A stretch of 62,356 bases of DNA, the filler included. It is 10 parts of 10 records of this genome, joined end to end, with 100 filler letters (N's around TTAATTAATTAA, not from the genome) between each part and the next. Parts side by side here need not be neighbours in the genome. Positions count along the whole stretch, not along the records: positions 11,596 to 22,927 come from SRR7504441_3375; 9 more parts are not named here. One strand, 5' to 3'. The notes under the pieces were generated by a model, which had not been told where the DNA came from, ran no database searches, and saw only the letters and a list, made by a program, of their open reading frames with translations. The position numbers and the translations under genes are program-made. Of the stretch, positions 7,794-62,306 are shown one piece after another (positions within the stretch are counted from its first letter, which is position 1; the number at the start of each line of letters is the position of its first letter).

Positions 7794-7893
7794 NNNNNNN
7801 NNNNNNNNNNNNNNNNNNNNNNNNNNNNNNNNNNNNNTTAATTAATTAANNNNNNNNNNNNNNNNNNNNNNNNNNNNNNNNNNNNNNNNNNNN
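7794..7893. other. Artificial contig linker (N44-TTAATTAATTAA-N44). Identical linkers at 11496-11595, 22928-23027, 26978-27077, 39001-39100, 43706-43805, 47515-47614, 50792-50891 and 59190-59289
   Basis: 100-nt N spacer with a six-frame stop palindrome, repeated nine times. Confidence 0.99.
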
Positions 7894-11495: not shown

Positions 11496-11880
11496 NNNNN
11501 NNNNNNNNNNNNNNNNNNNNNNNNNNNNNNNNNNNNNNNTTAATTAATTAANNNNNNNNNNNNNNNNNNNNNNNNNNNNNNNNNNNNNNNNNNNNTCCGT
11601 TGGCTATGTGGCAATCCGTGTATTCTTATTGGGAAGGTCAATGCAGATCATGAATCACGATCACGAGTGACCCGCCGCCGATCCACCGCCACGGCCGCCA
11701 CCACGTGACCACGCCCCTTGCCCATGGACGCAGACAAACCGTCATTACTCGAGTGCTCGACCATGTAACATTACAGCCATGCACGGCATCCGAAAAGAGG
11801 CTCCATTACGAGTATATACGTATACGTACGAGCATGACGTTGTCCAGATTTAACAGTACTAGTCAAGAATAGATCAAAAG

Positions 11881-12564
11881 CTATTGAGCGCTCCACAACA
11901 ACCGGTCAAATGCCCTCATCCGCACCCACTCGGGCCCGTATCGCAACTCGTCCCCCAGCCGCCCGAGCCCCGCCTCGGCAAGCTCCGGGCGCGCGCCTTC
12001 GTACCCCTCCCGCCACACCCGGCAGTACTCGCCATACGCCACCCCGGCCGCCAGACCCAGCGCCAGCCGCACTTTCGAGTCGAAGATCGGTACCGGCAGT
12101 CCGAGCATGTTCATGATCTTGCTCGCGGCCGATGGGTTCCGCCGGCCCAGCTCGGTGTGCATCACCTCGGTCAGACGCTCCACCAGCGCCAGCGCGGCCC
12201 CGGTGCATGGCTCGGCCTGAACCAGACCATCGATCTCCCCCAGATTCGCGCCGATGAACAGGGCAACCGGCCTGAGCTTGGCCTCGGCGGTGCCAGCCGA
12301 GAGGCCTGGAAAGCACCGGCTAACCCCGTAGGCACAGATGAACTGGTACAGCCCTGCGGCGCACCCGGCAGGGCCCTGGGTTGCGGACTGCCGGAGCCGC
12401 AGTGCGAGGCTCCGGTCCATGGCGATGAAGTGATCTTGGTAGCTGAGCATCGCTGCCCGGACTGCCTCGGGGCTCGCCGTTCGCGCCACCCGCCGCCGCT
12501 TGGGCTTGCGCGCTGTGCCCGTGGCCCCGGCGGGCGCTCGCTTGCCTGGTGGTGTGGAAGGCAT
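11881..12564 (-). CDS. Intronless bacterial-like alpha-helical (OGG/HhH DNA-glycosylase-fold) protein with an N-terminal NLS-like segment
   Basis: Pattern SAASKIMNMLGLPVPIFDSKVRLAL...YGEY...W...MRAFDRLLW; N-terminal RKPKRRR. Confidence 0.55.
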   Translation of the reverse strand: MPSTPPGKRAPAGATGTARKPKRRRVARTASPEAVRAAMLSYQDHFIAMDRSLALRLRQSATQGPAGCAAGLYQFICAYGVSRCFPGLSAGTAEAKLRPVALFIGANLGEIDGLVQAEPCTGAALALVERLTEVMHTELGRRNPSAASKIMNMLGLPVPIFDSKVRLALGLAAGVAYGEYCRVWREGYEGARPELAEAGLGRLGDELRYGPEWVRMRAFDRLLWSAQ

Positions 12565-12785
12565 GCGCCTGGAGCGGTCACCTGGACGTCAGCCGTTGTG
12601 CCGTTGTGAGCCGGGAGCGCGGCTGCAAGCTATGCCGCCTATGCGGGCCGCGCTGGCGATGGGGGCGTGGCCGGTCTGCTGTTCTGGACGCCCTGGCCCG
12701 CTGGTTGGTGTCTCTCGACACCCCAGTCCTCATAGCGCGTGGGCCGCAGCCTAGGGACCGTAATGTTTCAGTGTGCGATGCCGCC

Positions 12786-15650
12786 ATGCCGCCACGGGCC
12801 GATGAGGCCGAGGTGAAGAACTCGACCTCGAAATAGACGTCCAGCCCAGGGGCCGTCGGCACGCTCGGGTTGTCGATCAGCCGGAACTCCTTGGTCTGCG
12901 CGGCGGCTCGCGAGCGGCTGGGCGCAGGGCTGCACCTTGGGATGGCTGATCCGGATCCGGTGGGGAACCGAGTCCTGGTTTGTGACCGCTGGAACTGAGC
13001 GCCAGCCGGAGCGGGTGGTAGGTGGAATTCAATGGGAGCAAATTGGGCGAGTTCCAGGTACTGGCGCAACTCGAATTGGAACACCAGGAGGACAGAGCGC
13101 TCGAAATATCCGGTACTGTGGTCGAGCAGACGGTAGATGGCTGCGAGGCGGGGCTGATTCTGGCTGGCAGTGCGGGTAAGAAATCGAAACCCTGAACTGG
13201 CAATGAGCTACAAGATTGCCAAGGTGGCCAACTTCCGAATCGATCCCAAAGAAGGCACACTAGAACCTCTTGGTTCCAGGACGTTTGCAGTGACATACTA
13301 TCCTCAGCAGCTTGGCTCTTGTCACAATCGGTTAAATTTCATATTTGAGGGTGGAGCGCTGAAAGTGCCTCTGAAGGTCCAAGGGCACTGCATCCCAGAG
13401 ACCCATGCAGCCGGAACCACTCGGCGGGTGGTTGACCCCAAGCGCGTGGTGGCTGGCATTGACAAGACTGACGTAGATTTCAAACGCGAGCTCGACATTG
13501 TGCCGTCTGATTCAATTCCACTCAAGAACAAGAAGTTCAACTACCCAAACCCAGCACATCTGCAGACTTTATTCCTCCCAAGATTGAAATGCAGCCCAGT
13601 GAGCTGGATCTTGGCTGTCTCGCTGTTGGCGCAAGACACGAGTTCACATTTAATATTAAAAACACTGGCAAAGCTAACACCATCTTCCATCTGCAAGCCT
13701 CGTCTTCATTGTTGGATTTGAAGACAACGAAAGGCCTGATTCGGCCTGGTGCAAAGGCTGAAATCAATGGAACAGTGAAGCTGCTCGACACCAGTGTCAT
13801 AGACGAACAGGTCACAATCTTGCTCAGAGGAAGCAAGCCTGTCGTACTCAAAGTTACCGCGGAAGGTGCCCTTCCAAAAGTTGCTTTCGAGGAGGCTGAG
13901 TTTGATCTTGGCGATGTCACTGTTGGAGACTCTCATTATCTGCCCAAGACCACCATCGAATTCACAGGCCGGCTTGGCGAGCCGATTGTCAAGTCAATCG
14001 AGCTATCCAACTCATCAGCCTCACCAATACGCTACTCAGCTCGGTTGGACGGTTCTTCAGATTTCAGGCTCTTGCATGACGAAGTTCAGATCGAACCCAA
14101 GAGCAAGTTCCCCTGCACAATTGAGTTTGTGGGTAAGTTTTCACAAGAAGTCCAAGCTGAACTCTTCCTGATTCCGACGGCGTTTCTGCACCACCAAAGC
14201 CTGCAGAGAATGTCACGCTCCAGTGTAAGAAGGGCACTACTGCTAACAAGGAGATCACTATGCCCGTATTGAATCCTCAGAGGGAGGCAGCTTTAGCCTA
14301 CTTAAGCCAGCTCCAACTGAGCTCGATCAGATTCAATGCGAGATTGGTAAGCAGAGCTCTGTCAAATTTACCCAAGGCCACCTTGCCATACTCAAGTGCC
14401 GTGTAGGAGACAACGAAGTTCGTGCCCACTGATCCATAAGGCTCTAGCAAACCACTCCGCAGTCGTCCGCTCACGGCTCTTCTGCTGCGTCTCTGGTTGC
14501 AGATGTTTCACGGCTTTTTCTGCTTCCTTGGCGTCGAGCTGACATTGCTTGGTCAACAAGGAGAAGATGCAGTCAGTTTTGTATGGGTTTGCAATCGAAA
14601 TCATCTGAGTCACCGGCTCGTATGTGCATGACTCAATCGAGTAGTGCTGGCTCGGTTTGATCTCTGAGATTGATGATTTCAAATTGAAAACCAACGGCGA
14701 TCCAACTGCTCCACCGTCACGTTCGAACAAGCACTGTGAATTCACCGGCGGTTTCATCCATGAGCTGCAATTCACATTGAAAGAGACCTGGTGAGAATGG
14801 CAAGAAGGTAAGTTCAACGTCGACGCTGCTTGCAGCCTTGATAGGAATCTCAACCTGCTGGATGTGGAAAAATTCAGATATTGCTTCGTCTGGTAAGAAT
14901 TCTAGAGGCTCTTCCTTTTTCGAGGCCTTTCTCTTGCCTTTCTTCTTCTCGTCTGCCGATGGCTGGGGCTGAGAAGAGATTCGTAGGTTTAAACCTAATC
15001 GGAATCTGGATTGTTTGATGCTCAAACAGCTGCAATTGCTTGGTACCAGTTGACGAGCCCCCCATTAGTCTAAACGACTCACTTGTGCTATCCACCGCCT
15101 CCAATGAGACTGTTACATTTACTTTATGCTCAAATGGGTTGCGCAGGACCACAGGGTCGGAGACCTCCCGTCCCAGAGGTGCATAGAACATTGTCGATGC
15201 CATCTGCGTCGGAGGTTGTCCAACGCCACAGAGCGCAAATTCCCAGTCTGCCACCTTGGGATGCCGCAGCACTAAATTGGACTTCTGTTGCTGGTCCACT
15301 GTGGATGCAGTGTAAACTACTTCTAAGTCAAGTCGAGCATACGGTCCCATCACCAGTGGGCTGTCTTCGACAAGCACAAAGTTAGTGGGATTTGAATTGG
15401 TGCTGCGCAGCGTGATACTTTCACCAATTGGGTTTTCGATGGTAGGCTCGTCATCCTCACGGATGATATGCAATGGACGTACGAGGTTCGAGGCACACTG
15501 CCTCAATACCACGTTCCTGAGGGATTTGTCAAAGTAGCCACACATCTCTCGGACGAAGTGGAAGGGGAACTAACTAGGATCCATACTAGGCATCCGAAAA
15601 ATCACTTAAAAGATCAAGCAAAGCGGCCTCTCAAGCGAGGTGGCCGATGA
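12786..15650 (+). other. CFAP47: Scrambled/rearranged CFAP47-like locus: about 13 coding blocks on both strands, out of order, with internal parts missing
   Basis: CFAP47-like peptides: RIRISHPK|TKEFRL..APGLDV (-), ISGTVVEQT, KVANFRIDPKEG..PQQLG, ILLRGSKPV, YLPKTTIEF, STNSNPTNF (-), FLPFSPG (-), YTALEYGK (-) and LVILTDDMQWTYEVRG. Confidence 0.85.
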
Positions 15651-15883
15651 GCGTTTGCCAAAAAAAATAATCCACTTCGAGACCAACTTAGTAGCACTAA
15701 TAAACTCATTCTAAGATTCCCAATTTGGCAATTTATCACGACGTGGCGACTTCGGGATCGGACCATATAGAACAACGTCCACGCGTCTGCACTGATACTG
15801 TGTTATTACTGTGTTAATTAAAATTATCACCTATCACCTATATAATTAGAGAATTATCACCTATCACGGATCACGTGCTGACT

Positions 15884-18548
15884 CTACGCCGACTCTGCCA
15901 AAGTCAGAACAACGTCGATGTCGTACTTGCTTATGACTCCTGTCAGTGCAACCCGCGCAGATGTGCAAGTTTTTGCAACCTCCTTTTTGACCTCATCTGA
16001 TTGAGCATGTTGTAAAAGTTTAGCCTCAGCCTCATCGATGCTCGTATTAATTGTTGCCACACACATTGGGAACCAACGAAGCATTTTGCCCAGATCCGAG
16101 ACACACACTGCCACCATCTTGTTGAGGTTGTCATTTATCTTGGCAATCGCCAGCTGGAGTTTTGCATTCACCGCCGGCCCTTTCTCTTTCTTTTTGGGGG
16201 CATTCAAGAAAGCTATGGCTAGTGCAGACAGACCAGAGCTGACTGTGGCAGAGACCGCGCCAAATGCATTGGCAGACTTCATTAGCAGCAGCAGAATGCC
16301 CACCAGTATGGTGATTGCAGCAAGCAGCGACACCAAAGCGCCAACAATTGTCCACGTTGAGTATCCATTGTCGGACAGTGATTTACCGAGTGCATGTTCG
16401 AATGCAGATCTGACCAGAAGCACACTCTTCTGGATCTTTGTAGTCTTGAACCGCTTGAACTCCGCAATAGCGATCGCCCCATCACCGTTCACATCAAATT
16501 CTGCCCACTCATCGTCATCAACTGGTCCCATCTTCTTCTCGAACTCATCACGCTGCAGCAGTGCTCCATCAGCGCTAGCATCGCCCACCTTCGAGAACTC
16601 TGGGAGCATCTGAGTGTGCAAGGCGTCTCCCATTTTTTCGGTGGCACCAAGCAATCTTAAGCCTACTAGCTGTGACATGAGGTTGTCGTGTATCGTGTCC
16701 ATCAGCACCTGAGAACACAGCGGTCATGGCTTGTTAGGACACGAGGGCACCCGGTGATGGGAGACTTGCTGTTTGACGTTAGCCACGACGCTGCTGACCC
16801 TCATAAAGTTGGTGTACACAGCATATATGGTCGCGGTGATTGCCGTGAAGCTGAACATGTTGGTGAAGAAGTGCAGAACTAGACCCATCGCAGCGGACAG
16901 CAAGAAGCAAGCAGCGATTACCATGGTTAGCCAGGCCTGCCAACCAGTCAGCAGTGGCGACCGGTAGCGAAGTCACATGGAGAAGGAGGATGTCGCTGCA
17001 TACTCGAAACTTGATGAAGATAAGTACAAATAGCCGGTTGCGAGTGATCAGATGTAATCCAGGGATCAGCATGCCATCGAATTCAGTTCCAACATAGTGT
17101 ATCGCGAGGCAGCCCATTAGTAATATATATAATTTGTAGTTGAGGAGGACGGAAAAGTGGAAGAGCGAGTACAGCGCGTCTGATGCGAATAGCCCAAAGC
17201 TCATTCCATTCGTGCCAAACAGAAATAGCCCATTGATGAACTGAATATGCAAAAGTTGAAGAGCAGCCATCGTTGTCACAGTGAGCACGAACACGTGGAT
17301 CAGAACATTTTGTGTGCGAGAGAGCAGTTGGTCTGACATGAGTTGTGTGTCGGAGATGCTCGAGCCAGCAGTGCTCGAAGAAATCATGTGCAATATGCCC
17401 TGCTCCTCCTTGATCCGGCTCATCAGCTCATTATCGATCTCCGCTTTGAGCTGTGCAATGTCGCTGTGCTCAGTCAGCCGGCCTGGCTGCTCAAACTTGC
17501 GGGCCATGAGCTCATCGTACCACTCGCTGTGTTTTGAATCGTGAAGGAACAGGCCTTGCAGCACGTAGTTGTTGAGGTGCTCTCTGTAGCCGCGCTCAAG
17601 CGCCATTTGCAGCATAAAGGTGAATACAGTGGCCAGCAGCAGCACTGTTATGGCCACAAGCACCAGCAAGGACCGGATCTTCCGCTCGAGGTAGCTCAGC
17701 GGCTTCTCGACTAGTGAGAATTCTCCGTGCATGTCCACCTTCAACTTCCAACACCGCGATCGTCCAGCATTCGTGTACATAAAGAACCCATCTTTGAGCA
17801 CCCCGGTCTTCCGAGACTCCAGATCAAACTGCGAGCCGATCAGCTGGCCGAGGCAGGCGGTCATGTCTCCGCCCTGGCCTGGCTTCTGGGAGCACTCTGG
17901 AGAGCCAGCTTCAAGCTCCGACTCAAACGGTGCGCTTACCCAGACCGGGTCCAGAATCGAGCCCGAGATGGCATGCAGCAGCGCGGTGGGAAGCGTGGCG
18001 TACAGTACGCCGTGCGACCAAATCCACTGGCCTTGCTCTCCCCCAAACCAGCGCGTGTCCTTTGAGAAGACCAGGAAAGCGAGGTCTGGCAGTACTGGCG
18101 GCGACTGGCCCTCCTTATCCGCCGCAGCCGCCGGCGCGAAGGCGGTTTTGAAGCTGGTTACTCGATTGAGGTGCCGGGAGGCTCCGAGGTGGTCGAACTC
18201 CCGTCCCGAGTCTGCCCGGCCGAACAGGGCGTAACGGTGCAGCCCGCCCAGCACCGCCATCCCGAGCGCCAGCACCAACGCCGCCTGGAACAGGGCACAT
18301 ACCCGCCGCAGAAGCAGCGCCCGGCGCGCCCGGCTGGCCGACTCATCGGAGGGGGCGGGGCCAGCGCCGGCGAGCTCGGGGCCAGCGCCGGCGAGCTCGA
18401 TGGCGGTAGTCCCTGGTGGCGACTGGAGGGGCCGCTGCTCCTCGAACTGGAACGGCGACTCGGGTGGGCTGTCCATCGTGCCGTACGAGGGCTGCTCACT
18501 CCTCATGGCGGCCTGGACCGCCTTGCGCGCCGACTCGGTGCCTGCCAT
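15884..18548 (-). CDS. Multi-pass membrane protein with an EF-hand pair, about 2 introns
   Basis: ORFs 16779-18713 and 15884-16708 join through short introns. Many hydrophobic helices and the EF-hand loop DVNGDGAIAIAEF. Likely start MAGTES at 18548. Confidence 0.65.
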
Positions 18549-18625
18549 GGTCGCCTGCAGTTGCCAGCATAACGGCTTGTTCGGTGTCGCCTGTCGGAGG
18601 GCGGCGAACGGTTGCTGGGGCTGGG

Positions 18626-21264
18626 ATGAAGGCGGTGGTGGTGGGAGACCGCCAGACTGGTGGGTCTGCCCGCTCGGCGCCGCTGACCGGTCCGCAGGCA
18701 AGAGCACGCTCATCCGCAGGCTCGCCGGGGCTGAGGGCTCGAAAACCGAGTGCGGTGCGCGCCTGCGACTGGCTTCCCGCCGAACGGGCGGCAGGCCGTG
18801 CCGAGGTCACGCCAATGTCGCTCGGGGATGCTGGCGCGGCCAGCTCTGTGCGTGGCCTGGCCTCGCCGCCCTGCGAGCGACGGTAGGTGCACCTGTGGGA
18901 GTTCGCAGTCGACTCACCGCCTGAGCTGTACGCCGATGCCGAGCTAGCGCTGCTAGTGTACGACGTGACCAGCATGGGCTCGTTCGAACTGGCCACCACC
19001 ACAGCCATCGCGCGCCTCGGCGGGTGGCAGCTGCGGCCTCGCCGCTGGGGAGCCCGGGGGTACAGGCCTAAGTCTGTGCTGCTGGTGGGGCTGAAGAGCG
19101 ACCAGGCCGCCAACCGGGCAGTGACAATCGCGCAAGCGCACACGTGGGCGGTGTCGAACCGGTGCGGCCCTGCTCGACGGACCGGTCTGAGAGGGTGCAG
19201 CGTGCGGCTGGTGGAGGTGTCGGCGCACTCTGGGCAAAACCTCGATCAACTGCACCGTCTCGTGGCACTGAGCCACGCCGCCAGCGCGAGGGACACTGCG
19301 CACAAGCAGCCTGCAGTGCAGCCGAGCGCTAACAAGATCCAGCTCCCGATCTTCATGCAATCGCTCGGCGGTAACCAGTCCACCTCGGGTGTCCCCACGT
19401 CACAGCCGGCGCCGAGCCTCGCGACAGGTCAGCACGAGCAGGAGTGGTCTGCCGTTGAAGCCACGGCTGCCTCGTCTTCATTTGCGTGAGTGCTATTGCT
19501 AGTGCAAGCCCACCGAGCTTGGCCGCTGCAGGATGGTGGACGACAAGACGACCATGGAGTACCTGGACGCGCTGTGCGGGATCCCGAAGGCCCAAGCCTC
19601 GATCCGAGTCGCAGCCCAGCGATCTCAGCGGTCACCTACCCAGTCCTGGGCCACGTCAAGTTGGGTCGGAGAATCGGATCAGCTCTGGTCGCAACTGGCT
19701 CCCCCGTCCCAGCAGCTCAGCCTCAGTCCGAGGTTAGTGTTGTTGCGGTCACTCAGCAAGCAGGGGAACAGGCCGCAGACAACCCGCAACTACGAGCATG
19801 CGGCGAGCTTCGGCCTGGAGATAGCGAGTGCCATGCCTGAGACGCCCCCGCCGGAGTTCAAGGTGCTGCCGCTGGCCGCTGAGTCTGGCTCACAGCCGGT
19901 GTGCCAGGCCGAAGTATCAGCAAGCTCCTCATCAAAGCAGTCGCTGCAGAGGCACTGGGGCCCGGCCACTGCGCGACCAGGCCAGCACTCCGGTGGTTGA
20001 CTCTCTATGGCTGCAGCCTGACCAAGCTGCAGGCAAGAGCAGGAAGGTCGAGTCGCACGTGGCAGCCAGCTCACCGGGGCTGCCGCCCACAGTCAACGGC
20101 GACCTGCAGGTTCGCTATGCACGATCAGCTGCACCTGATGTGTGTGTCAGAGGCTGATTGGCCTCTCTGGCATGCCAGTGGTCACCCAGTCTAAACGGGT
20201 GATTCTGCATTTGGAGCTGGACATAGGGGACGGGCGAGTGGAAAGGATCGATGTAAGAGAGGGCGACAAGCCTGCTGTGAGCTCGCCGGCCTGTGTGGGC
20301 TTGACTGGCATCCGATAGGTGCTGGCGGAGGCATTCGTGCAGCTGCACGCACTAGCTCCGGCCATCATCCCTCGGCTGGCATCGTTCATAGATCAGCGCA
20401 CTGCAGCGGTCGCTTGAATCGCTGCAACTAGCTGTTGACCGCGTGGAGGTCAGGTCCAACAGGAGAGCAGTGCCAGTGCTAGCAGCAGCAAACCCCGGCC
20501 GCACACGAGCCGGGCGCCATCGGCACCCCGTACACACAAGTCGCCGCGGCGATCCGTCCAGCCGTTCCGGCTGGAGACGAGTCAGCGAGCAGAGGGCAGC
20601 AGAAGGCAGCCGCTCTGTCATTGTTGCTGGCCAACGAGTGTTTTCAGGTCTGCTATAGCACTCCTGAAATTACATATCCAGATCAGCCACGGTAGATCTG
20701 GCACAATTATTGTCCGCAAGGTGCTTTGGCCAGTGTTTCCAAGCTCCTAAGCTGTTTGGCTGTCCCAGGGCGACGACCCAAAGCAGCTCGCGCAGGCGTT
20801 TGTAGACACATTCAAATTGAACCATTCAATGGTCAGAACGATCTACGAGAAGATCAACGAGCAACTCAAGCTGCTCCAGCCGGTGTCCGCAGCACCACCC
20901 GCTAGGCCCTCATCTGTGCTGCAGAAAGTCCAGCTGCCAAAGCTCGATTTATCGCAGCTCGAGCCCAAACAGCCTGCGTCCAGCTCAGTGAACCTGTCTC
21001 CCATCACACCAAAGCCTCTGCGCGAGATCCTGTTCAATCTTGATATCGACCTCGGGGCTCAAGGCGCAGGCCGGCTGGTGGTGAGGCGAGGGGACAATCC
21101 GGGTGCGTGCTCACACCGACCGGTCTTGAACGGTTGCGGTGTGTGCAGAGGCTTTGGCGCAGGCGTTTGTACAGCAGCACAACCTGCACCCGGACGTGAA
21201 ATCTAAACTCACCCAGCTCATAACTGAGCACACTGACACCATGGCCGCATCAACACCGCGCTAG
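18626..21264 (+). CDS. Divergent Ras/Rab-like GTPase domain + long low-complexity linker + two C-terminal repeated domains, multi-intron
   Basis: MKAVVVGDRQT|GKST P-loop split by an intron, then VHLWE, LLVYDVTS, LLVGLKSD and VEVSA. Two repeats of the form IIVRK|GDDPKQLAQAFV and LVVRRGDNP|EALAQAFV. Confidence 0.7.
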
Positions 21265-21638
21265 ACATTAGCTAGATACGTATTCGTTTGTACTACATAT
21301 ATGTCTTAAACTGACCAAAGTCACCAAACTATACTGATGTACGAAATCCGGTACATGTACAATAACTGTAACAAACACGATGATCCCGCAGCGTACATGT
21401 ACGCCATCACCAGCTGGCGCTCGGTCGGAGTCCACTTGTGTTTGCCACCTACCAGCCGGCCATCTGCTTGCCCGGCAGTAGCCCGGCAGGCGGCTCACCA
21501 TTGAATAGTGACCGCTCCATTAGAGCCGCCCCGGGCCCTCGGTCAGTGAAGAGGTCTCGCGCAGTCACATAGGTCTAATTTTGGTCGCACTCGTCTCCGG
21601 GGCTGCAAGGAGGGCGCTGCTGCACAGTGCACTGCGTG

Positions 21639-22120
21639 ATGGCGCCGAAGAAGGACAAGGGGGAGGAGGAGGAGGAGGAAGTGTGGCGGCCGTTTGCGAA
21701 CGACCCCGACATGATGCTCAGAGAGCCGGTGCAGGTCGCCTCGACCCCCCGGGGCCCCCGGCGACCGGCGGGGCCAGATGGGGTTCAAGACCATCCAAGC
21801 CGTGGCCAGCGCACACGCCACCGCCTGGCAGAACCACGCCAACGCCCAGGGCGAGATCGACTTCGACGCCAAGGGCCAGCAGATCGTCTCCGACATCCGC
21901 AAGGCCCCCCGCCCCCCCGGGGTCGGCGCGAGCTGTCGACAGGCGCTGGAGGAACAGTTTGAACCGACTTGGCACGTGGTGGCCGGCCGGAACTACGGGA
22001 CCGCCGTGACTTACCAGTCCAATCAGTTTCTCTACTTTTCGAAGCACCAGGTTGGCCGCCAGCGCTGTCCGGCCCGACCGGGCGGGCCAGATTCACTTTT
22101 TGGTTATGAAGACGGTGTGA
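21639..22120 (+). CDS. Dynein light chain LC8-family protein, 3 introns (one GC-AG, 21904-21942)
   Basis: SDIRK|ALEEQFEPTWHVVAGRNYGTAVTY...FLYF...|IHFLVMKTV*. Confidence 0.85.
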
Positions 22121-22414
22121 GGGGGGCGGGCGGCGGCGGCGCAGTCTTGGGCTGGTGGCGGCGCGGCGGATCGAGCTCTCGCGACAACCAGTCGCCGGGC
22201 TCCGGGGAAGTGGGTCGATGATTAGAGCTTCGGCTAGGGCAAAGAGAGCGTTGTTAGTTCGAAACGCTCTTTTGCGAGCGTTCAATAATGGGCACATCTA
22301 GATGGCCTGGACAAACACTGGTATTTAAATAATGTACACAACTTATCAGCCCGTCGTAGCAAGCAGAATGCAGTCTACCCAAAGCCTTTGTCAGGCTACT
22401 GTACGTACTTGACT

Positions 22415-22893
22415 TCATCGGGCAGGCAGGTCGTCGAAGTATGCGTGCTCGAGCCCCTGCTGGGCCGTGACCCTGCGAGCGGGCTCGTACTTGATCATCT
22501 GAGTCAGCAGGTCCAGTCCGACCGGATCCAGACCTAACGGAGCCAAGCTCTGGCCCTGGCAACTACTGAGTGCCTCGCCACGCTGCGCACAAAGCTGGTC
22601 ACATGCGGAAGGCTCTGCCGCACCTTGAACGAAGGCGTCTCTATGATGGAGGGCCAGCTGTCGCGGGTCGGGGTGCCGAGTATCTGGGTCGGCCGCTCAG
22701 TCAGCCGGCTCTGGCTTCCAAGGCACCCGGACAATCTTGTGCAGCTGGTCCTTGTCTGAGCTACCTGGGAACAGCGGCTGGCCGGTGGTCATCTCGGCGA
22801 AGATGCAGCCGCAGCTCCAGAGGTCGAGCGGGGTCGAGTATCTAGTCGACTCCATCAGCACCTCCGGCGCCCGGTACCACAAGGTGACCACCT
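22415..22893 (-). CDS. Cyclin-dependent kinase, C-terminal half (5'-truncated by the contig end)
   Basis: [34 protein letters not shown] and [13 protein letters not shown]; stop at 22415-22417. Confidence 0.92.
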
Positions 22894-23403
22894 GGCACGG
22901 CTCCCCCCCCCCCCCCCCCCCCCCCCCNNNNNNNNNNNNNNNNNNNNNNNNNNNNNNNNNNNNNNNNNNNNTTAATTAATTAANNNNNNNNNNNNNNNNN
23001 NNNNNNNNNNNNNNNNNNNNNNNNNNNACTGTTCTGCACAGTGTTCCTATAGCCACATCAATTTCTGCCAAATGCAGTCTGTGGGCTGCATCCAGCTCAC
23101 CCATTAATCAGCAGAACTGTGGTTTGGGGGTCTAAAGCCCATGATCACAAGGTGTGAGCAAGAGCACAGGGCCAATGCCACGATGCCAACGCCACCCGCT
23201 CTTTGTTCATAACGAAATCCCGTGCCGCGGCCTCTCGCCTGATGGGCAGTGCAGTGCCGATGCTAGCCGTGCTGTGCCTGATGGTCGCGCAATGCTCTCC
23301 ACATTGTGTACGACGACCGTTGTGAAGGCCAAGGGCACGCTGAATCAGTGCGCTGATGGCCTTGAATCCTATGGCGGCTTGCAGCGGCTGAGCCTCCGGC
23401 CCA

Positions 23404-31100: not shown

Positions 31101-34100
31101 TGCACTGTGCTGTCGAACCAATGCCAAAACTCGGGCTGCATGCACTCGTCCCGAGGTGGGAACTTTTCAAACACACTGCGCACAGACCCAAATCAAGCAG
31201 GTACAGCAATCCAAAGCTCTCACCCGGGCACTTTAGTGATGCAGACGGCGTTGGTCTGCATGGCGTGCGCTAGCTGGAATGCGTTCATCACCTTGCGCTT
31301 GGCCTTCTTCTTTATACGCCGGTGCTGTTCTGTGTCCTCGGGAAGCTGGCAGACGGTCTCAGCTTCGCCAAGGAATAGAGTGAAGTCTCGCAGCACTTGA
31401 GCAGCCGCCTCGCGCCCAACTCCCTCGGGCATGGCCTCGACCCGCTCTTGCTCCATCTGCAGCGTGTATAGCTCATACACGGTCGCAGCAGCCCCAGCCG
31501 CATTGGGCGAGGCGCCCGAGAAATAATCCCAGAACAAAGCCTGCGGGCTCCTGTACACAGCAGTCACTCAAAGGTTGGCTGGGCTGGCAAGGCACCCTGG
31601 CAGTTGGCGGATTTGCTTGCCTAACGGCCAGTGACGCTCGATAGCTTTCCCTCCTTTACCCCTGATCGCTGGGCCTTTGCCGCCCTTGCCCCTTGAGGCC
31701 GGGCCCTTCCCTCGGCCTTTGCCTGCGCTTGCTTGACCGCCGCGCACCGCCTCGCCTGGCCCGAACGGATTGGAGGCTGGTTTGTGCTTGAGCGTGTTCT
31801 CGAGCTTGAGCCGGACTTCTTCTATAGCAAAGTCTTTCTTCGGATCGTGCCGATATGGCAGCCGATAGCGGTCAACTCGGCCCAGCTGAAGGATGTTGAT
31901 CTCAGGCTCGGTCCAGGCTGCCTTCAGGTCCACACCTATCTGATTCATCAACATCTCCTGCTCCATCTCCGCGGCAGCTCGCGCCAAGGCCATCTTCTCC
32001 TCGGCCTTCTTGGCTTCCTGCGCCTTCTTAGCGATCAGGAAATGGGTGGCCAGTTCGATGGCCTTGAGTGCATCTGGGTTGGTATCGTCAAGCACGTTGC
32101 CCCACACCGTGTTGGGCACGTTGCGTGCATCAGCCGGGGCGGCGCCCCAGCCACACTTTGGACAGTGAGAGAAGGGCGAGGAACCCCAGAACCCTTTGGT
32201 CGGGGCATCTACCACAGCCTTGGCCACGAGCGCCATCTCCTGGAAAGCCACAAACTCATGCCTGGTGAACGAGACCGGTTCGCGCGACCCGTCATGCTGC
32301 CCCGCCGCCTTGTGACACGCCTCGCTCCGCAGAATCTGGAGCACCCCGCTGTCGCCCACCGGGACGATGACGGTATCGCGAAACGGATGCTCCGGGTCTT
32401 CTGCAAAGCAGTCTATTTCAGGCTCAAGCCCGGTTTCTGCGTGGAGCGCAGTCGAAGTGAGCCCGGTCTCCGTCTGAGCCACTTGGCCCACAAGCCCCAG
32501 GCAGGTCTCGAAATAGGCCCCGGAAGCCCCAGTCTCGGCCATCTCGTGCGCTGCAGTCGAGCCACGGTAGGAAGACAGCCTGAGCAGCCCTCCGTCGACG
32601 GTGCGCTTGTACAGTACGGCCTGCTGCTCGACAGGATCGGTCATAGAGTCGTTGTGCGGGGCCAGCATGCAGGCCGCCTTGCAAATATCGGCAGCAAAGT
32701 CGTCCAGGGTGCTCGGGGTATCCAGCACGCCCTGATAATAGTCGGGTATCTGGCCAGGTCGGCTCTTGTGCTGGTTCTCGATCGCTTTCTTCAAGGTGGC
32801 CATCTTCTGTTCGAACATGGCTCTCTGGTCATCCAGCTTGGCCTGCATCTTGGTTAGCTGCAGCTCATAATCACCGCGCATCTCCTGCTCGCGCTCCGAG
32901 GCCGGTTTGTTCCTCTCTTGCCGGAGCATGGCTTCAAGCTCGTCCTTGTACTTGTTGCTGGCCACCAGCTCCCGTTCTAAGCTGACTGCCCGCTCGTGGT
33001 TGGTGTCTGTGCTCCCTTCGAGCACCTGAATTCTGTTCACGAACTTGTACTCGACCTGCCGCTGATGGTTCTGCATGATCGACGACACGATTTCGATCAA
33101 AGAGCGCCGCAGCTCGAAGTCGTGCACAGCAGGCGCCTGCGACGCCAGGAAGAGCGAGCCACACCCGGATCTGTGGTGGGCCCGGTGCAGCCCCCACAGC
33201 CGCTGGACGGCATGCACCAGCACGCTCTGACGGACCCCAGACTCGGCGGCCTTGGCCTCGATCATCTGGTCAGCGAAGCTGTTGAGCAATCCACTGGCTG
33301 CGCGCGTGACCCTCTCAGCGAGCATGCCGGCCAGTGCGGTCGGATCGATAAGCGAGCAGCTGTTGGTCGAGTCTTCGGTCCCGATCGAGTGCCAGACGGC
33401 CCGCTGCTGTGGCCTGCTCCACTGCTCGATCTGCCGGGCTGTGAGCGGGCTCGGGGCGGCAGTGTACCTCCTCGGGGATGCTCTTCTCTATTCGGTGGAG
33501 CAGTTGATTGAGAGCTTCGACTAACCCCAGCGCCCGCAGCTGCTCCCAAAGCTCGAGCGCCGCCTTGGGCTGGTGCGCGTGCTGCCTGGGCAGCCAGTGC
33601 AGCAGCATCATCACCTGCCCATCGGGTTGGCCCCGTGCGGCCGCGGCCCAGCACCCGGCAGCAGCTGAGCACCCCGGCCTGTTCCTCCTTGAGCACCCTG
33701 AGCAAGCAGCCATACAGCGGGTCTTCGCTCTCAGGCACCCCATACCCGCCCCGCATCCGATTAAGCGCACCCGTCACTGCGTTGACCCCGTCGGACGCCC
33801 CGGAGTTGCCCGAGTGATGCTCCACCGCGAACAGAAACTCGAACACGGCCGCGTTTGCGTTCCGCAGTGCGATCAGCGCAGTCGGGTGAGGGCAGGCGGC
33901 TGCCGGTCTGAAGCACCGCGCGATCCAGAACAGGTCGAAGGCTCCGTCCGGCCCGCCCTGCTCCTCGACGAGCAGCATCACCTGAGGGCTCTTCCGGACC
34001 AGGCTGGTGAAAGCGATCACGAGCGCGCACCGGTAAAGCCAGACCGCCTCGTCCCCGCCGTCCCGGCCGGCCAGCTTGCGGATCTCGGCATACACTGCCG

Positions 34101-43276: not shown

Positions 43277-43805
43277 ATGGGGTGCCTGCGAGAGGGATGG
43301 TTCTGTGGATAGCTCGGCTTTGACGCTAGTGAGTGTCGGTGTTTGGGGGTGAATCATTGCCCGATTTAATAGTAAGTTAATCTATGAAACCCGCATAAAC
43401 TTGTTCTGCTTTCTTACATAGAGTAGCCTTTATCGATAAACTGTAATTTTAAAAGGGATTTTAATTGAAGATAAATTGAAGACCGGTCACGAGTAAGCTT
43501 ACATGGCGTGCCTTCGATGGAAACCATATTGCAGACAGATCAAAATACAGAATACTTGTACCGTCGGGCTACGTGGTCCAGCGTGCTATTATCCGCTGCA
43601 CGTGCGTGCTCTTCGCATAGATCCGGTCCCAGAAGCCACGCACACGCCGTGTCCCACCCCGCGACCTCCCCGCAGGCTGGGCAGCGCCATCTCGTCCCCC
43701 CCCCCNNNNNNNNNNNNNNNNNNNNNNNNNNNNNNNNNNNNNNNNNNNNTTAATTAATTAANNNNNNNNNNNNNNNNNNNNNNNNNNNNNNNNNNNNNNN
43801 NNNNN

Positions 43806-59076: not shown

Positions 59077-59312
59077 AAGACATATTTCAGAGTGACGCAT
59101 AATTTCAGTTTACTAGATTATTCGTTAGATTAATCGACGGTTTAATCGCAGATTCATCGCTAGATTATGTCCCATTTAAAAGGATCGTTNNNNNNNNNNN
59201 NNNNNNNNNNNNNNNNNNNNNNNNNNNNNNNNNTTAATTAATTAANNNNNNNNNNNNNNNNNNNNNNNNNNNNNNNNNNNNNNNNNNNNATTGAGGTGGA
59301 GCCTCGTGGTGG

Positions 59313-62306
59313 ATGAGCCGCCGGGAGCTGGACAGGGTGCTGGCCCAGCTCGGCCGACCGTCGCCCCCGGACCAGGGCGACCGGCAGCTGGCGCACATGC
59401 CCACCGGGGTGGAGGCCGGGCTGCGCGGCCGGGGGGCTCGCAGCGCGCTGGAGCGCGACTGGTTGCTCGAGGCTCTCCTGGCCAAGGTCGGACAGCGGAC
59501 AGAGCCCCAGGGCCGCGCCCGGGGCTGCCAGACCGAACAGGCCGCCGCGCAGCTCGAGGGCCAGCTGGGCCGGCTGCGGGTTGCCGAGGCTGCGGCCCGG
59601 GCCGGGCAGGCCGAGGCCGAGCAGCGGCTGGCTGCCAGCGAGCTGGCGGCCGAGCGGCTGCGCGAGCAGCTGACCGAAGCGCTCCAGGGGGGGACGCAGC
59701 ACGGGCAGGACCCGGCGCTCCGGGTGGAACTGTCGGTTGTAGCTGCCGAGAGAGATGGCCTGCGCGAGACGGCAGCCAGGGAGGCCGCCCGGCGGGCCGA
59801 GGCAGTGGGCCGAGTGCTAGAGCTCGAGAGTCAGCTGGCGGAGGCGGGCGAGGCGCTGGCGGCCGAGGAGCGGCGGGGGGAGCAGAGCCAGCAGGCGGTG
59901 CATGCGCTCGAGGCCGAGCTGGCAGCTGTCAAGAGGTTGGAGCAGGAGCACGAGCAGGCCAGTCGGCACAGGAGCCGGCGGGGCTCGCGGGCCAGTGTGG
60001 AGCCGAGGCGGAGCAGGAGGGCCAGCCGGGTCAGTTTGAGTGGCCTGGAGGCTGCCCCAGTGGGGGGGGCGCCAGTGGGGCAGCTGCATGAGCCGGAGAA
60101 TGGTCGCGCCAACCCACAGACGGAAGCCGAGACCGTGGCTGCGGCCGTTGCTGCGTTTGCAGGTGCGGATAGCAAGCCGGCGGCAAGTGGCGGCCTCCAG
60201 CGGCTGGTTCTCCTTCAGCAGCAGCTGGAGCAGCAGCAGCAGCTGCTGTTGGAGGAGGGCGAGGCACTGGAAGCAGCGAGGAACTTACTCGGAGCTGAGC
60301 AAGATCGGGTGGAGGAGCTGGAGGAGCAGCTGGAGGAGGCCGAGGACGAGATCGCCGAGCTGAGCCAGGCGGGCGCTGCGTTGGAGGAGCTGCAAGGGGA
60401 GGTCGGCTCGTTGCAGGACGACCTCGAGACCCAGGCGGACACGTCGCGTGGGCACGCGATAGAAACTCAGAATGTTGTGAAGCGGCTGCATGCGTGTGAG
60501 CAGGAACAGAACCGGCTCGAGTGGAAGGTGGAGAGCCTGGAGAGGGAGAAGCATGACCTAGAGCTGATGGTGGAGATGGACTATGGCAAGGAGGCAGTCC
60601 AGAAGCGGAAGGCGGCGCTCAAGCTGATCGGCAGGCGAGCTCGCCGGTACGTGCTCAGGCGGAGGCTGAAGTTGATGATGGCCGACCTGAATGAGTTCAA
60701 GAGAATCCCCGACACCAAGGCGCAGGTGGTAGCCGCCACAGCCAGCTTTGTCGGCAAGCAGCAGGAGGCGCTCAGCACGCTGCTAGAGCTATACGTACGC
60801 CCTACCGAAGCCGCACTGGCCGGCTGGCCCGCAGACCTCGACCTGCCGGCCGGCAGGCAGAGCCTCCCTGTCTTCAAGGAGCTCTTCCTGGAGCCGTTCG
60901 GGCAGTCGCTGGCGACTGTAACCCGGCTGCTGAAGTCTATGCTAAACGGGCTGTACACAGCGATGCACCTGAGCCAGCGCGAGAGCAGTGGGAGCAGGGA
61001 GGAGCTCGACCAGGCAATCGTGGACTTCAACCGAGTGGCGCTGAGCTCCGAGATGATAGACGCCGCAGCCGACTTCTTCAAAAGGGGGAACGACATTCAG
61101 GACGCTGTCCGAGACGCCGGCTGGGCTCGCCGCAGGGACCCTGAGCTGTGCAAGCAGTTAGAGCACGGAGACAAAGGGATGATCAAACTAAACAAAACGC
61201 TGCAGGGGGTGCTGAACATGCCCATGTCTCTCGCAGCCACGTTCAAGTCTTTGCTGAAAGATTACATCAAATACAGCAAGAGCGAGAATGCAGAGCTCAA
61301 GTACTTGCAGGAGCAAGAGTCGCTGAGGCTGATTCAGCAGAACTATGCAGACTTTGGTAAAGTGAGGCGGATCTATGATTCAATTGAGATGGAGGGCGCT
61401 CCGCTCAATTCCTGGCAGCTCCGCATGGCCCGGGTTCTGCTCGGCGAGAAACACTCGTGGCATGTCGGGTTGACACTGGGAATGCATGCCACCAGTGTGG
61501 AGAAGGCCTACCAAGCTCGGCGGAAGCAGGCGGGCTCCCCGATGGTCACTAGCTTCCTGCGTGCCGAGCTGCTCGAAGGGCACGTTCTTCTCGCTGAGGC
61601 GGTGGAGCACGATCAGAAGGACGGGTTTCAGTTCCGGCAGCTGATTCCACAACCAAGCAACAACTGGTTCAGCGCCCGATACAGAGTGGGGCTCGTCTTG
61701 TTCGGGGCTGGCTCAAGGCTGATGGGGCTGGTGGTGCGCGGGTTGAACATGGGCCAATTCTTGGAGCAGCTCACAAGTGCTCAGAAGCTGGCGCTGTACA
61801 ACACGATTACCAATACCAGTCCAGCCAGTTCTTGCCCGGCACCCTGCTGCGCTGATAAGACGACAAGCTTGAGCCGCAAGGGCTGCATCGACGGGTCGAT
61901 GATACAGACAACTCAGCCGTCATCTCCAACTATCCTTGACCATGAGCTCAGCAATTATCTGCGCCCGGTGCTCAAGCAGTGGGGAGCTTCAGCAGTGCCC
62001 CCAGAGCTCCAGCAGCTGCTCAACGGGGTGCCTTGCTTTGACCAGGAGTATTTGATTCAGGTAGAAACTGACCAAGCAAAGCAGTTTGAGAATGATATTA
62101 GGCGGGCGCTTCCTGGGCTTGAGGTTTGCGATTATGAAGCAGCTGTAAAGTCGGGGCTCCTAAAGCTTTCCAAGAAGAACAAGGCTTCAAGCAGTAGCGG
62201 TGCCAAGCCGGAAGCCAAGCTCTCAGAAAGTGCGAAATGGAAGCTAAAGCGGCAAAAGGAGCTTGAAGAAGCCCGGCGAATCAAAGCGAGCCTACTGGGC
62301 ACTTAG
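59313..62306 (+). CDS. Long coiled-coil protein with a DH (RhoGEF)-like C-terminal region; start may be partial
   Basis: A 997-aa ORF with an E/Q/L-rich coiled coil, then LSTLLELYVRP, LQGVLNMPM..FKSLLKDYIKYS (DH-like). Confidence 0.6.
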   Translation: MSRRELDRVLAQLGRPSPPDQGDRQLAHMPTGVEAGLRGRGARSALERDWLLEALLAKVGQRTEPQGRARGCQTEQAAAQLEGQLGRLRVAEAAARAGQAEAEQRLAASELAAERLREQLTEALQGGTQHGQDPALRVELSVVAAERDGLRETAAREAARRAEAVGRVLELESQLAEAGEALAAEERRGEQSQQAVHALEAELAAVKRLEQEHEQASRHRSRRGSRASVEPRRSRRASRVSLSGLEAAPVGGAPVGQLHEPENGRANPQTEAETVAAAVAAFAGADSKPAASGGLQRLVLLQQQLEQQQQLLLEEGEALEAARNLLGAEQDRVEELEEQLEEAEDEIAELSQAGAALEELQGEVGSLQDDLETQADTSRGHAIETQNVVKRLHACEQEQNRLEWKVESLEREKHDLELMVEMDYGKEAVQKRKAALKLIGRRARRYVLRRRLKLMMADLNEFKRIPDTKAQVVAATASFVGKQQEALSTLLELYVRPTEAALAGWPADLDLPAGRQSLPVFKELFLEPFGQSLATVTRLLKSMLNGLYTAMHLSQRESSGSREELDQAIVDFNRVALSSEMIDAAADFFKRGNDIQDAVRDAGWARRRDPELCKQLEHGDKGMIKLNKTLQGVLNMPMSLAATFKSLLKDYIKYSKSENAELKYLQEQESLRLIQQNYADFGKVRRIYDSIEMEGAPLNSWQLRMARVLLGEKHSWHVGLTLGMHATSVEKAYQARRKQAGSPMVTSFLRAELLEGHVLLAEAVEHDQKDGFQFRQLIPQPSNNWFSARYRVGLVLFGAGSRLMGLVVRGLNMGQFLEQLTSAQKLALYNTITNTSPASSCPAPCCADKTTSLSRKGCIDGSMIQTTQPSSPTILDHELSNYLRPVLKQWGASAVPPELQQLLNGVPCFDQEYLIQVETDQAKQFENDIRRALPGLEVCDYEAAVKSGLLKLSKKNKASSSSGAKPEAKLSESAKWKLKRQKELEEARRIKASLLGT

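Follow-up and report, generated by a model that had tools for sequence, protein, structure and literature searches.

A CFAP47 gene shuffled into about 13 pieces in a draft assembly of an uncultured marine protist: probably one-off breakage or artefact rather than programmed scrambling

The window, meaning the whole 62,356-nucleotide stretch of DNA analysed here, consists of ten contigs linked by N44-TTAATTAATTAA-N44 spacers, so physical linkage to the CFAP47 locus is limited to positions 11596-22927. The source record is a fragmentary draft in which contigs of 3-12 kb are joined as a pseudomolecule, and two of the contigs end in poly-C. The host is an uncultured marine protist with GC-rich GT-AG introns and AATAAA in its genome. 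The Ras-like, dynein light chain and kinase genes traced on the 11.3-kb contig are of normal appearance, as the initial annotation had described the genes around the locus, and the contig is normal for 1.2 kb to the left of the broken gene and for 7.2 kb to its right. Rfam gave 0 matches on the window. The tblastn matches listed below were obtained with the nearest relative, P0001 (1790 aa), whose cluster mates are P0153 (2543 aa) and the pair P0156 (1650 aa) and P0157 (1214 aa).

12786..12809, + strand: candidate block A, a proposed start (ATG plus 7 codons)
12810..13005 (right end approximate), - strand: fragment B; P0156 residues 61-105, 72-74% identity; tblastn (-) 12983-12809
13006..13169 (left end approximate), + strand: fragment C; P0156 residues 203-240, 58% identity; tblastn (+) 13022-13135, also matched by P0009 (E=1e-7)
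13170..13553, + strand: block D, starting mid-exon; P0156 residues 398-521, 58% identity, E=1e-38; tblastn (+) 13170-13562, E=2e-39
13554..13932, + strand: block E; P0156 residues 868 to about 993, 55% identity, E=2e-47; tblastn (+) 13562-13932
13933..14176, + strand: block F; P0157 residues 79-159, 79% identity; tblastn (+) 13934-14176
14177..14303, + strand: block G, after K in the protein; P0157 residues 331 to about 375; tblastn (+) beginning at 14179
14304..14372, + strand: block H; RNA contig X1 record 1, 0 mismatches; tblastn (+) extending to 14369
14373..14460, - strand: block M, inverted; P0157 residues 1121-1152, contigs of X1 (0 mismatches) and X3, both linking it to N; tblastn (-) 14459-14364
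14461..14724, - strand: block L, inverted, after F in the protein; P0157 residues 160-248, 58% identity; tblastn (-) 14724-14455
14725..14976, - strand: block K, inverted; P0157 residues 238-329, 52% identity; tblastn (-) about 14995-14726
14977..15440, - strand: block J, inverted, after H in the protein; P0157 residues 778-932, 67% identity, E=3e-59; tblastn (-) 15440-14976, E=1e-60
15441..15650, + strand: block N, the C-terminal part, with a TGA stop at 15648-15650; P0157 residues 1150-1212, 71% identity, contigs of X1 and X3; tblastn (+) 15441-15635
15651..15717, + strand: 3' UTR; AATAAA, 15699-15704; poly(A) site, 15717

The gene had been named CFAP47, and database searches bear this out. 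An exhaustive phmmer search returned 560 proteins at E<=1e-3, many of them 2800-3100 aa long; an atlas search confirmed the family, Ig_CFAP47 being present in the atlas neighbours. Pfam places Ig-like/ASH matches on blocks D, E and J, that on E being a HYDIN/CFA65/VesB-like Ig domain (47 bits). When 68 of the phmmer proteins, CFAP47-like, of full length (2700-3300 aa) and more distant than the relative, were aligned to the window, all 328 HSPs fell within 12700-15750, in agreement with tblastn using the relative, and the missing two thirds of the protein were found nowhere else in the 62 kb (0 of 328 HSPs outside that interval). Judged from its sequence, the gene is a CFAP47 orthologue by descent but not a functional member of the family. 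The loss of about two thirds claimed for it also holds, with ~925 codons kept against ~2872 in the full-length protein of a close relative (P0156 plus P0157, and P0153). The gaps correspond to ~345 codons between D and E, ~745 between E and F and ~355 between G and H. Both the PF24529 CFAP47 domain and the calponin-homology domain of the relative fall in the E-F gap and are absent from the window copy; in P0153, Pfam places the former at residues 1105-1263 (100.7 bits) and the latter at 1296-1401.

Based on tblastn with the relative, the protein order of the 12 verified blocks is B-C-D-E-F-L-K-G-H-J-M-N, while along the DNA they are arranged as B'(-) C D E F G H M'(-) L'(-) K'(-) J'(-) N; the positions, strands and protein order first proposed for B to N agree with this alignment, and the same order was obtained with the best 8 of the 68 distant queries. 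The scrambling is thus confirmed as a property of the sequence, with about 13 pieces shuffled, flipped and two thirds of the gene missing. Of the 12 junctions, all within 2.9 kb, 6 skip forward, 2 jump back and 4 switch strand; tracing the remaining genes of the contig brought no further junction to notice. Retained and lost segments alternate along the protein (D, gap, E, gap, F-L-K-G, gap, H-J, gap, M-N), and breakpoints hit exons and introns alike. As had been noted, the blocks are free of decay, with no in-frame stop in any of them under the standard code. Neighbouring blocks lie in differing frames, so the rearranged product is unable to encode the protein.

At the 5' side, no homology was detected between block A and the N-terminus of the relative, and environmental contig X2 record 5 departs from the window exactly left of 12810. 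Fragment B consists of an exon (12810-12895), a GT-AG intron (12896-12935), a second exon (12936-12988) and the tail of the upstream intron; its 40-nt intron is exactly as originally described and is covered by X2 record 5 over 12810-12952 with 0 mismatches. The B/C breakpoint lies somewhere within 12989-13021. Fragment C is made up of an intron tail ending in AG, an exon (13022-13132) and the first 37 nt, with GT start, of the next intron. The '38-nt intron' that had been read at 13133-13170 is incomplete: it is the first part of a natural intron, joined to D in mid-exon. Contigs of two runs part from the window left of 13170: X2 record 6 and X7 record 9 agree with it from that position on, and upstream of it they share one in-frame coding stretch that is absent from the window. 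From D to N the blocks adjoin directly, the only non-coding remnants being pieces of the gene's own introns at B/C and C/D, and nowhere are blocks separated by filler, adaptor or spacer sequence. Exon shuffling at intron positions was rejected, given that D starts mid-exon and that probable-DNA contigs are intron-free through C/D and from J into the next segment. A retrocopy or cDNA origin was likewise set aside on the introns in B and C and the lack of an A tail past the poly(A) site.

GC3 declines from block to block along the protein (B 0.93, C 0.68, D 0.56, E 0.49), a gradient from which we infer that the blocks derive from one once-collinear gene of this genome; of 6 further long ORFs binned in the window, 3 show such a fall. 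GC drops near 13170, which might point to a chimera of two organisms; this reading is rejected on the gradient and on the similar depth (2.6-4.4) of the B, D and J contigs in run X2.

An RNA contig corrected several boundaries (G/H to 14303/14304, M/L to 14460/14461, L/K to 14724/14725 and K/J to 14976/14977), and five natural joints, F-L, L-K, K-G, H-J and M-N, have both sides present in the window and can be restored. Restored by coordinates, all five are in frame and match the relative; at K-G the last base of K and the first two bases of G make up one codon, and at H-J and M-N the RNA contig shows 0 bases lost and 0 gained. K precedes L on the minus strand and follows it in the protein, and at positions 14975-14976 it carries 2 additional bases, 'CT' when read on the minus strand, identical to the last two of L. 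Repeats at the ends of the five joints measure 0, 0, 2, 4 and 4 nt, both 4-nt cases being one TACC/GGTA inverted pair; for random pairs, chance gives 0 nt in 56% and at least 4 nt in 1.8%. The H/M and J/N junctions together form an in-place inversion between these 4-nt inverted repeats. No common or palindromic restriction site was seen by eye at the breakpoints, and joints of the Hi-C type at shared sites were rejected for this reason. Blunt, conservative and free of spacers, the joints match neither the pointers and IESs of ciliates nor the template-switch chimeras of phi29 multiple displacement amplification (MDA).

Copying errors would be of that second kind, either phi29 MDA chimeras or other replicative template switching (MMBIR, chromoanasynthesis) stacked in one region. 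Two switches could produce the H/M and J/N inversion, and every jump stays below 10 kb on the natural gene, like those of the MDA chimeras in PMC9984789; such chimeras are intramolecular rearrangements, inversions included, that reach single-cell assemblies, and many false inversions are also known in MDA-derived assemblies, according to bioRxiv 10.64898/2026.06.11.730069. In PMC9984789, 85-91% of these copy-based chimeras are inverted, their overlaps mostly measure 5-8 nt, and they reach at most 469 events per Mb. Here, only 4 of the 12 junctions switch strand, most being same-strand, the overlaps are 0-4 nt, and the 12 junctions crowd into 2.9 kb. Copying also yields duplications and arbitrary restarts, whereas five breakpoints here are reciprocal to the base and nothing is duplicated. 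We consider template switching improbable. A library chimera had been offered as an alternative, along with localized shattering; both are what the evidence leaves, but the classical MDA chimera fits poorly.

The search for a collinear transcript that had been advised succeeded. A metatranscriptome contig of 1644 nt (X1 record 1) runs in the normal order, from H directly into J, then through 564 nt absent here to M, N, the 3' UTR and poly(A), with 1 mismatch in 898 nt and 100% identity across H, J and M. Upstream of H it has 159 letters that differ from the window, so that 564+159 nt present in the RNA are missing from the locus. Within this contig J maps to 14977-15440 with 0 mismatches, and its 3' end reaches 15717, followed by C and 22 A; the window continues past that position with no run of A. 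In two probable-DNA metagenomes from other studies, contigs are collinear at three of the window's junctions, and X7 record 11 runs on collinearly past 14977. Altogether, contigs of four of the 24 listed runs contradict 7 of the 12 junction positions and bridge none (0 of 12), with 4 mismatches in 2121 nt against the blocks. These contigs leave some intervals uncovered, e.g. 13336-14170 and 15841-17000; the largest share of the stretch's words in any run was 0.24, and the assembly's own data were not among the runs. A metagenome scan with block J gave 123 pattern matches, none related, and with block F the sole return was the relative's collinear, transcript-like contig L001. A protein search at similar length with the ORF spanning E/F returned no near-identical protein, hence neither an independent copy of the E/F junction nor a natural fragment of the same species was found. 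On the reading favoured below, the collinear form recovered from environmental RNA and DNA is the species' functional CFAP47 gene.

Programmed unscrambling of DNA, or assembly at the RNA level, had been proposed for the locus. On that proposal a non-ciliate marine protist with the standard code would hold a germline-type locus, the collinear copy being somatic or assembled in RNA. Scrambled and collinear forms do coexist at (near) 100% identity, the blocks are undecayed, the joints are base-exact, and the missing two thirds could sit elsewhere in the assembly, beyond the 62-kb window. The RNA, however, carries the 564+159 nt lost here, and probable-DNA contigs from ordinary metagenomes are collinear at three junctions. 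In Oxytricha, Tetmemena and Euplotes woodruffi, scrambled germline genes likewise have permuted and inverted coding segments with exact joints, and PMC9797194 gives canonical ciliate pointers of 2-20 bp, longer ones for scrambled segments, and eliminated sequences between segments. At this locus, two of the five joints that can be restored have no pointer repeat and the other three have repeats of 2-4 nt, the blocks abut with no eliminated or IES-like spacer, some breakpoints are intronic, two thirds of the gene are absent and no other scrambling was noticed in the window. The host is also without ciliate features: the close relative uses TAA as a stop codon, the host's introns are GT-AG and GC-rich, and AATAAA is present. 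Such a system would have to unscramble with neither pointers nor spacers, unlike that of ciliates, and we regard it as very improbable. Since environmental RNA and DNA show the gene in its normal order, we read the locus as a single breakage or an artefact and not as a gene scrambled by a programme.

The reading we favour, at about even odds (roughly 0.5), is a single chromothripsis-like shattering of a normal gene, repaired by a process of the non-homologous end joining (NHEJ) type and confined to the cell, clone or molecule that was sequenced. What was observed directly is the order of the blocks, the blunt and conservative nature of their joints, and the existence of collinear RNA and of probable DNA in the same arrangement. 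An ordinary collinear CFAP47 of ~2870 codons, with short introns only near its 5' end, would have suffered at least 13 double-strand breaks on one DNA molecule. Pieces of 24-464 nt would then have been religated end to end by NHEJ, without homology and in random order and orientation, as a kilobase-scale chromothripsis-like event in which about two thirds of the gene were lost. We infer that the breakage took place in a living cell or clone, on a chromosome, one allele or an extrachromosomal multi-fragment circle, and not in the tube. The event appears recent, since the blocks differ from the contigs of the four runs by only 4 mismatches in 2121 nt and contain no stop. It is also local, the other traced genes of the contig being normal and no inverted duplication of at least 28 nt being present in the 62 kb.

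The criteria for chromothripsis that Korbel and Campbell reportedly set out in 2013 include breakpoint clustering, random order and orientation, alternation of kept and lost segments, and restriction to one haplotype; clustering, random order and orientation, and kept/lost alternation are all found here. In plants, sites of transgene integration or of biolistic delivery reportedly also undergo local shattering (Liu et al. 2019), with small fragments similarly shuffled and religated, but the CFAP47 locus is without foreign DNA. PMC13390643 describes chromothripsis and chromoanagenesis as clustered breakpoints with fragments rejoined in random order and orientation, kept and lost segments alternating, joints that are blunt or have microhomology of up to 4 nt, and a derivative that can be walked from flank to flank; tens to hundreds of fragments come from a chromosome or chromosomal region, and the authors' verdict on their own picoalga rearrangements is that they are not chromothripsis. 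Our joints resemble these, but the fragments of 24-464 nt lie inside one gene of ~9-10 kb in an uncultured marine protist, and their size, far below those described, counts against shattering. So do the zero loss at four well-resolved breakpoints, cleaner than is usual for NHEJ, and the 7 of 12 junctions contradicted, with 0 of 12 bridged, in the four runs. An intact copy may also lie in the assembly beyond the 62 kb analysed.

The clean breakpoints and the contradicted junctions favour the main rival, a laboratory or computational artefact, which taken as a whole we hold to be a tentative prospect, less probable than shattering. Most of that weight falls on a conservative artefact in a library or assembly, itself unlikely, by which the organism's chromosome would be collinear. 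Fragments of a single molecule may have been ligated before amplification or sequencing (a product of the proximity-ligation or concatemer type), an over-amplified multi-fragment circle may have captured the assembly path, or the rearrangement may have arisen in silico. Every independent datum is collinear, the blocks are the same as in the wild population, the joints are perfectly clean, and the record is a draft with poly-C ends. Against this, we can think of no standard library procedure that would join a dozen fragments of a single 9-kb gene and also supply copies enough for assembly through all 12 junctions. The contig is also normal on both sides. De Bruijn mis-traversal is ruled out: it requires overlaps of k-1 bases, and the blocks have none in common. 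The 2 extra bases at K/J resemble enzymatic end processing, not a text operation.

Another reading is that the same genome also holds an intact CFAP47 locus, the window showing a second copy that was shattered into a pseudogene after duplication, or gene fragments joined into a concatemer that entered a break at another place in the genome; in mechanism this would be a sub-case of the shattering explanation. Block A and the left flank are not demonstrably the native 5' end, and collinear DNA and RNA exist, both as this reading expects. The reciprocal, non-overlapping breakpoints, however, imply a single donor molecule that was consumed rather than sampled, and the window passes the poly(A) site into non-A sequence, as a native 3' flank would. 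A separate copy seems quite doubtful.

If the junctions are in the organism's DNA, the locus would represent gene-scale, chromothripsis-like shattering in an uncultured marine protist, with fragments one to three orders of magnitude below usual descriptions and blunt end-joining repair seen at work in the wild. If they are absent from the organism, it would be an unusual conservative artefact, distinct from the known MDA chimera and worth recognition by genome-mining pipelines. In both cases, on present evidence, the reading of the locus as a scrambled gene outside ciliates fails, and public environmental RNA and DNA contigs are able to adjudicate such claims.

The window is a pseudomolecule of 62,356 bases and not a single molecule: ten contigs of 3-12 kb are separated by identical spacers (44 N, TTAATTAATTAA, 44 N; at 7794-7893, 11496-11595, 22928-23027 and six more sites), and gene neighbourhood across a spacer is therefore meaningless. 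Pieces of the stretch were seen only in metagenomes and metatranscriptomes of marine or aquatic origin, with a maximum share of sampled words per run of 0.24. The gene content of the contig that carries the locus (11596-22927) is eukaryotic, including a Ras-like GTPase, a dynein light chain, a protein kinase and an EF-hand membrane protein, and short GT-AG introns and an AATAAA signal are visible in the sequence. Between CFAP47 and the gene that follows it, the AT-rich spacer holds a perfect 16-nt direct repeat, AATTATCACCTATCAC (15822-15837 and 15852-15867, 30 nt apart). Poly-C runs at the ends of two contigs (22900-22927 and 43696-43705) appear to be end artefacts of sequencing or assembly. 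The contig at 47615-50791 has about 50% GC throughout, unlike most other contigs of the window, and phosphopantetheine-attachment (PP-binding) domains occur in its long ORFs.

The ORF at 13511-14272 led to a single long protein of a close relative, P0001 (1790 aa; 79% identity across block F). Its 90% cluster also contains P0153/P0154 (2543 aa), P0156 (1650 aa) and P0157 (1214 aa). In P0153, Pfam finds a CH domain and the CFAP47 domain (100.7 bits); P0156 and P0157 share one 8726-nt contig and together make a protein of about 2872 aa, of which about 925 codons are retained at the locus. Blocks were placed by tblastn of the relative's proteins against the window.

CFAP47 blocks in protein order, with strand in the window and matching residues of the relative
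Block B, minus strand: residues 61-105 of P0156
Block C, plus strand: residues 203-240 of P0156
Block D, plus strand: residues 398-521 of P0156
Block E, plus strand: residues 868 to about 993 of P0156
Block F, plus strand: residues 79-159 of P0157
Block L, minus strand: residues 160-248 of P0157
Block K, minus strand: residues 238-329 of P0157
Block G, plus strand: residues 331 to about 375 of P0157
Block H, plus strand: residues about 755-776 of P0157
Block J, minus strand: residues 778-932 of P0157
Block M, minus strand: residues 1121-1152 of P0157
Block N, plus strand: residues 1150-1212 of P0157

This is the protein order proposed in the initial annotation, and the 40-nt GT-AG intron that it described in block B is present. 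Homology was not detected for block A, the supposed start. A set of 68 full-length homologues of greater distance yielded 328 HSPs across the window, none beyond the locus, and the best 8 of these 68 queries returned the same block order.

From block to block in protein order GC3 drops from 0.93 in B through 0.68 in C and 0.56 in D to 0.49 in E, which accounts for the GC step at 13170, and it falls likewise from 5' to 3' in three of the six further long ORFs analysed in bins. This gradient argues that the blocks come from one gene of one genome. Strong falls in both GC and GC3 occur inside long genes at 16779-18806 (-), 59295-62306 (+) and 31568-33487 (-) as well as in the CFAP47 blocks, with GC3 going, for example, from 0.90 to 0.57 or from 0.78/0.87 to 0.56. 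The gradient is specific to the window's genome, in contrast to a transcript-like contig of the relative (L001), which is flat at about 0.48 GC.

Four public environmental runs of the 24 listed, all as contigs, were aligned to 12000-17000: the metatranscriptome X1, X3, and X2 and X7, whose label as probable DNA is the tool's guess; X2 carries the block B intron. The X1 contig (1644 nt) is collinear, running through 159 letters foreign to the window, H, J, 564 further non-window letters, M, N and the UTR to 15717, followed by a poly(A) tail, with no mismatches to H, J and M and one to N and the 3' UTR. In the X3 contig M is joined to N, with 211 non-window letters upstream of M. Record 5 of X2 spans B with its intron and then departs from the window left of 12810; record 11 of X7 matches the end of J and departs beyond 14977; and record 6 of X2 and record 9 of X7 both match D from 13170, preceded by an identical sequence that is absent from the window. 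Translated by hand, each of the loose contig ends continues the reading frame of the relative's protein: those that follow B and J as well as those that precede D, H and M. Collinear continuation contradicts seven of the twelve window junctions (A/B, C/D, G/H, H/M, M/L, K/J and J/N), three of them through the probable-DNA runs. No contig in the four runs bridges any of the twelve, and B/C, D/E, E/F, F/G and L/K lack cover there. All environmental pieces together differ from the blocks by 4 mismatches in 2121 nt, so the blocks are ordinary members of a wild population; the contigs may come from strains other than the assembled one. The X3 contig leaves the window at 15698/15699, 19 nt before the X1 poly(A) site and just upstream of AATAAA, possibly because the 3' end is an alternative or allelic one. 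Two short X2 contigs of higher depth (11 and 21) align to about 45 nt within 12687-12745 with about 91% identity and part from the window to either side; they may stem from a different organism or from a short dispersed repeat.

Both partners of five natural joints are in the window (F-L, K-G, L-K, H-J and M-N), and all five, when rejoined by coordinates, are in frame and match the relative. At K-G a codon is rebuilt from one K base and two G bases; at H-J and M-N the RNA contig shows nothing lost and nothing gained. End repeats ("pointers") measure 0 nt at F-L and K-G, 2 at L-K and 4 at H-J and M-N, the last two being a single TACC/GGTA inverted pair that borders an in-place inversion; among 20,000 random position pairs, 56% had 0 and 1.8% had at least 4. 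From D to N the blocks directly adjoin with no intervening sequence, K/J has two extra bases, and the only extra sequence at B/C and C/D is pieces of CFAP47's own introns, so that both exons and introns were hit by breaks. No duplicated segments were found, nor any inverted duplications of at least 28 nt in the 62 kb. The joint pattern is one of conservative cut and paste: a single molecule was cut at at least 13 places, some of the pieces were rejoined bluntly and in random order, and the remainder was lost.

Ciliate-type scrambling, as described in PMC9797194, involves pointer repeats and eliminated spacers, a pattern that does not fit the locus. The ciliate-like programmed unscrambling suggested in the initial annotation is not borne out, given end repeats of 0-4 nt, no eliminated spacers and collinear probable-DNA contigs. 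Programmed scrambling is very improbable: it would require a mechanism without pointers and without spacers, as well as an unseen reservoir holding the two thirds that are missing, and it is contradicted by the collinear probable-DNA contigs from ordinary metagenomes.

Two readings are left, end joining in a living cell and a conservative artefact. Artefacts taken together are a real but lesser possibility; we can name no concrete standard mechanism for a conservative one. Mis-traversal by the assembler requires shared k-mers, and none are present. The twelve junctions comprise six forward skips, two backward jumps and four strand switches. Chimeras from phi29 MDA, according to a review (PMC9984789), are inverted in 85-91% of cases, overlap mostly by 5-8 nt and reach up to 469 events per Mb; they are copy-based, whereas the joints here are conservative, and the four strand switches in twelve and the 0-4-nt end repeats do not fit them either. 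A recent preprint on single-cell genomes from long reads confirms the abundance of false inversions in MDA assemblies (bioRxiv 10.64898/2026.06.11.730069); this signature is not seen elsewhere in the window, as judged by inverted duplications of at least 28 nt over 62 kb.

End joining in a living cell, chromothripsis-like in the sense defined in PMC13390643, has a probability of about 0.5.
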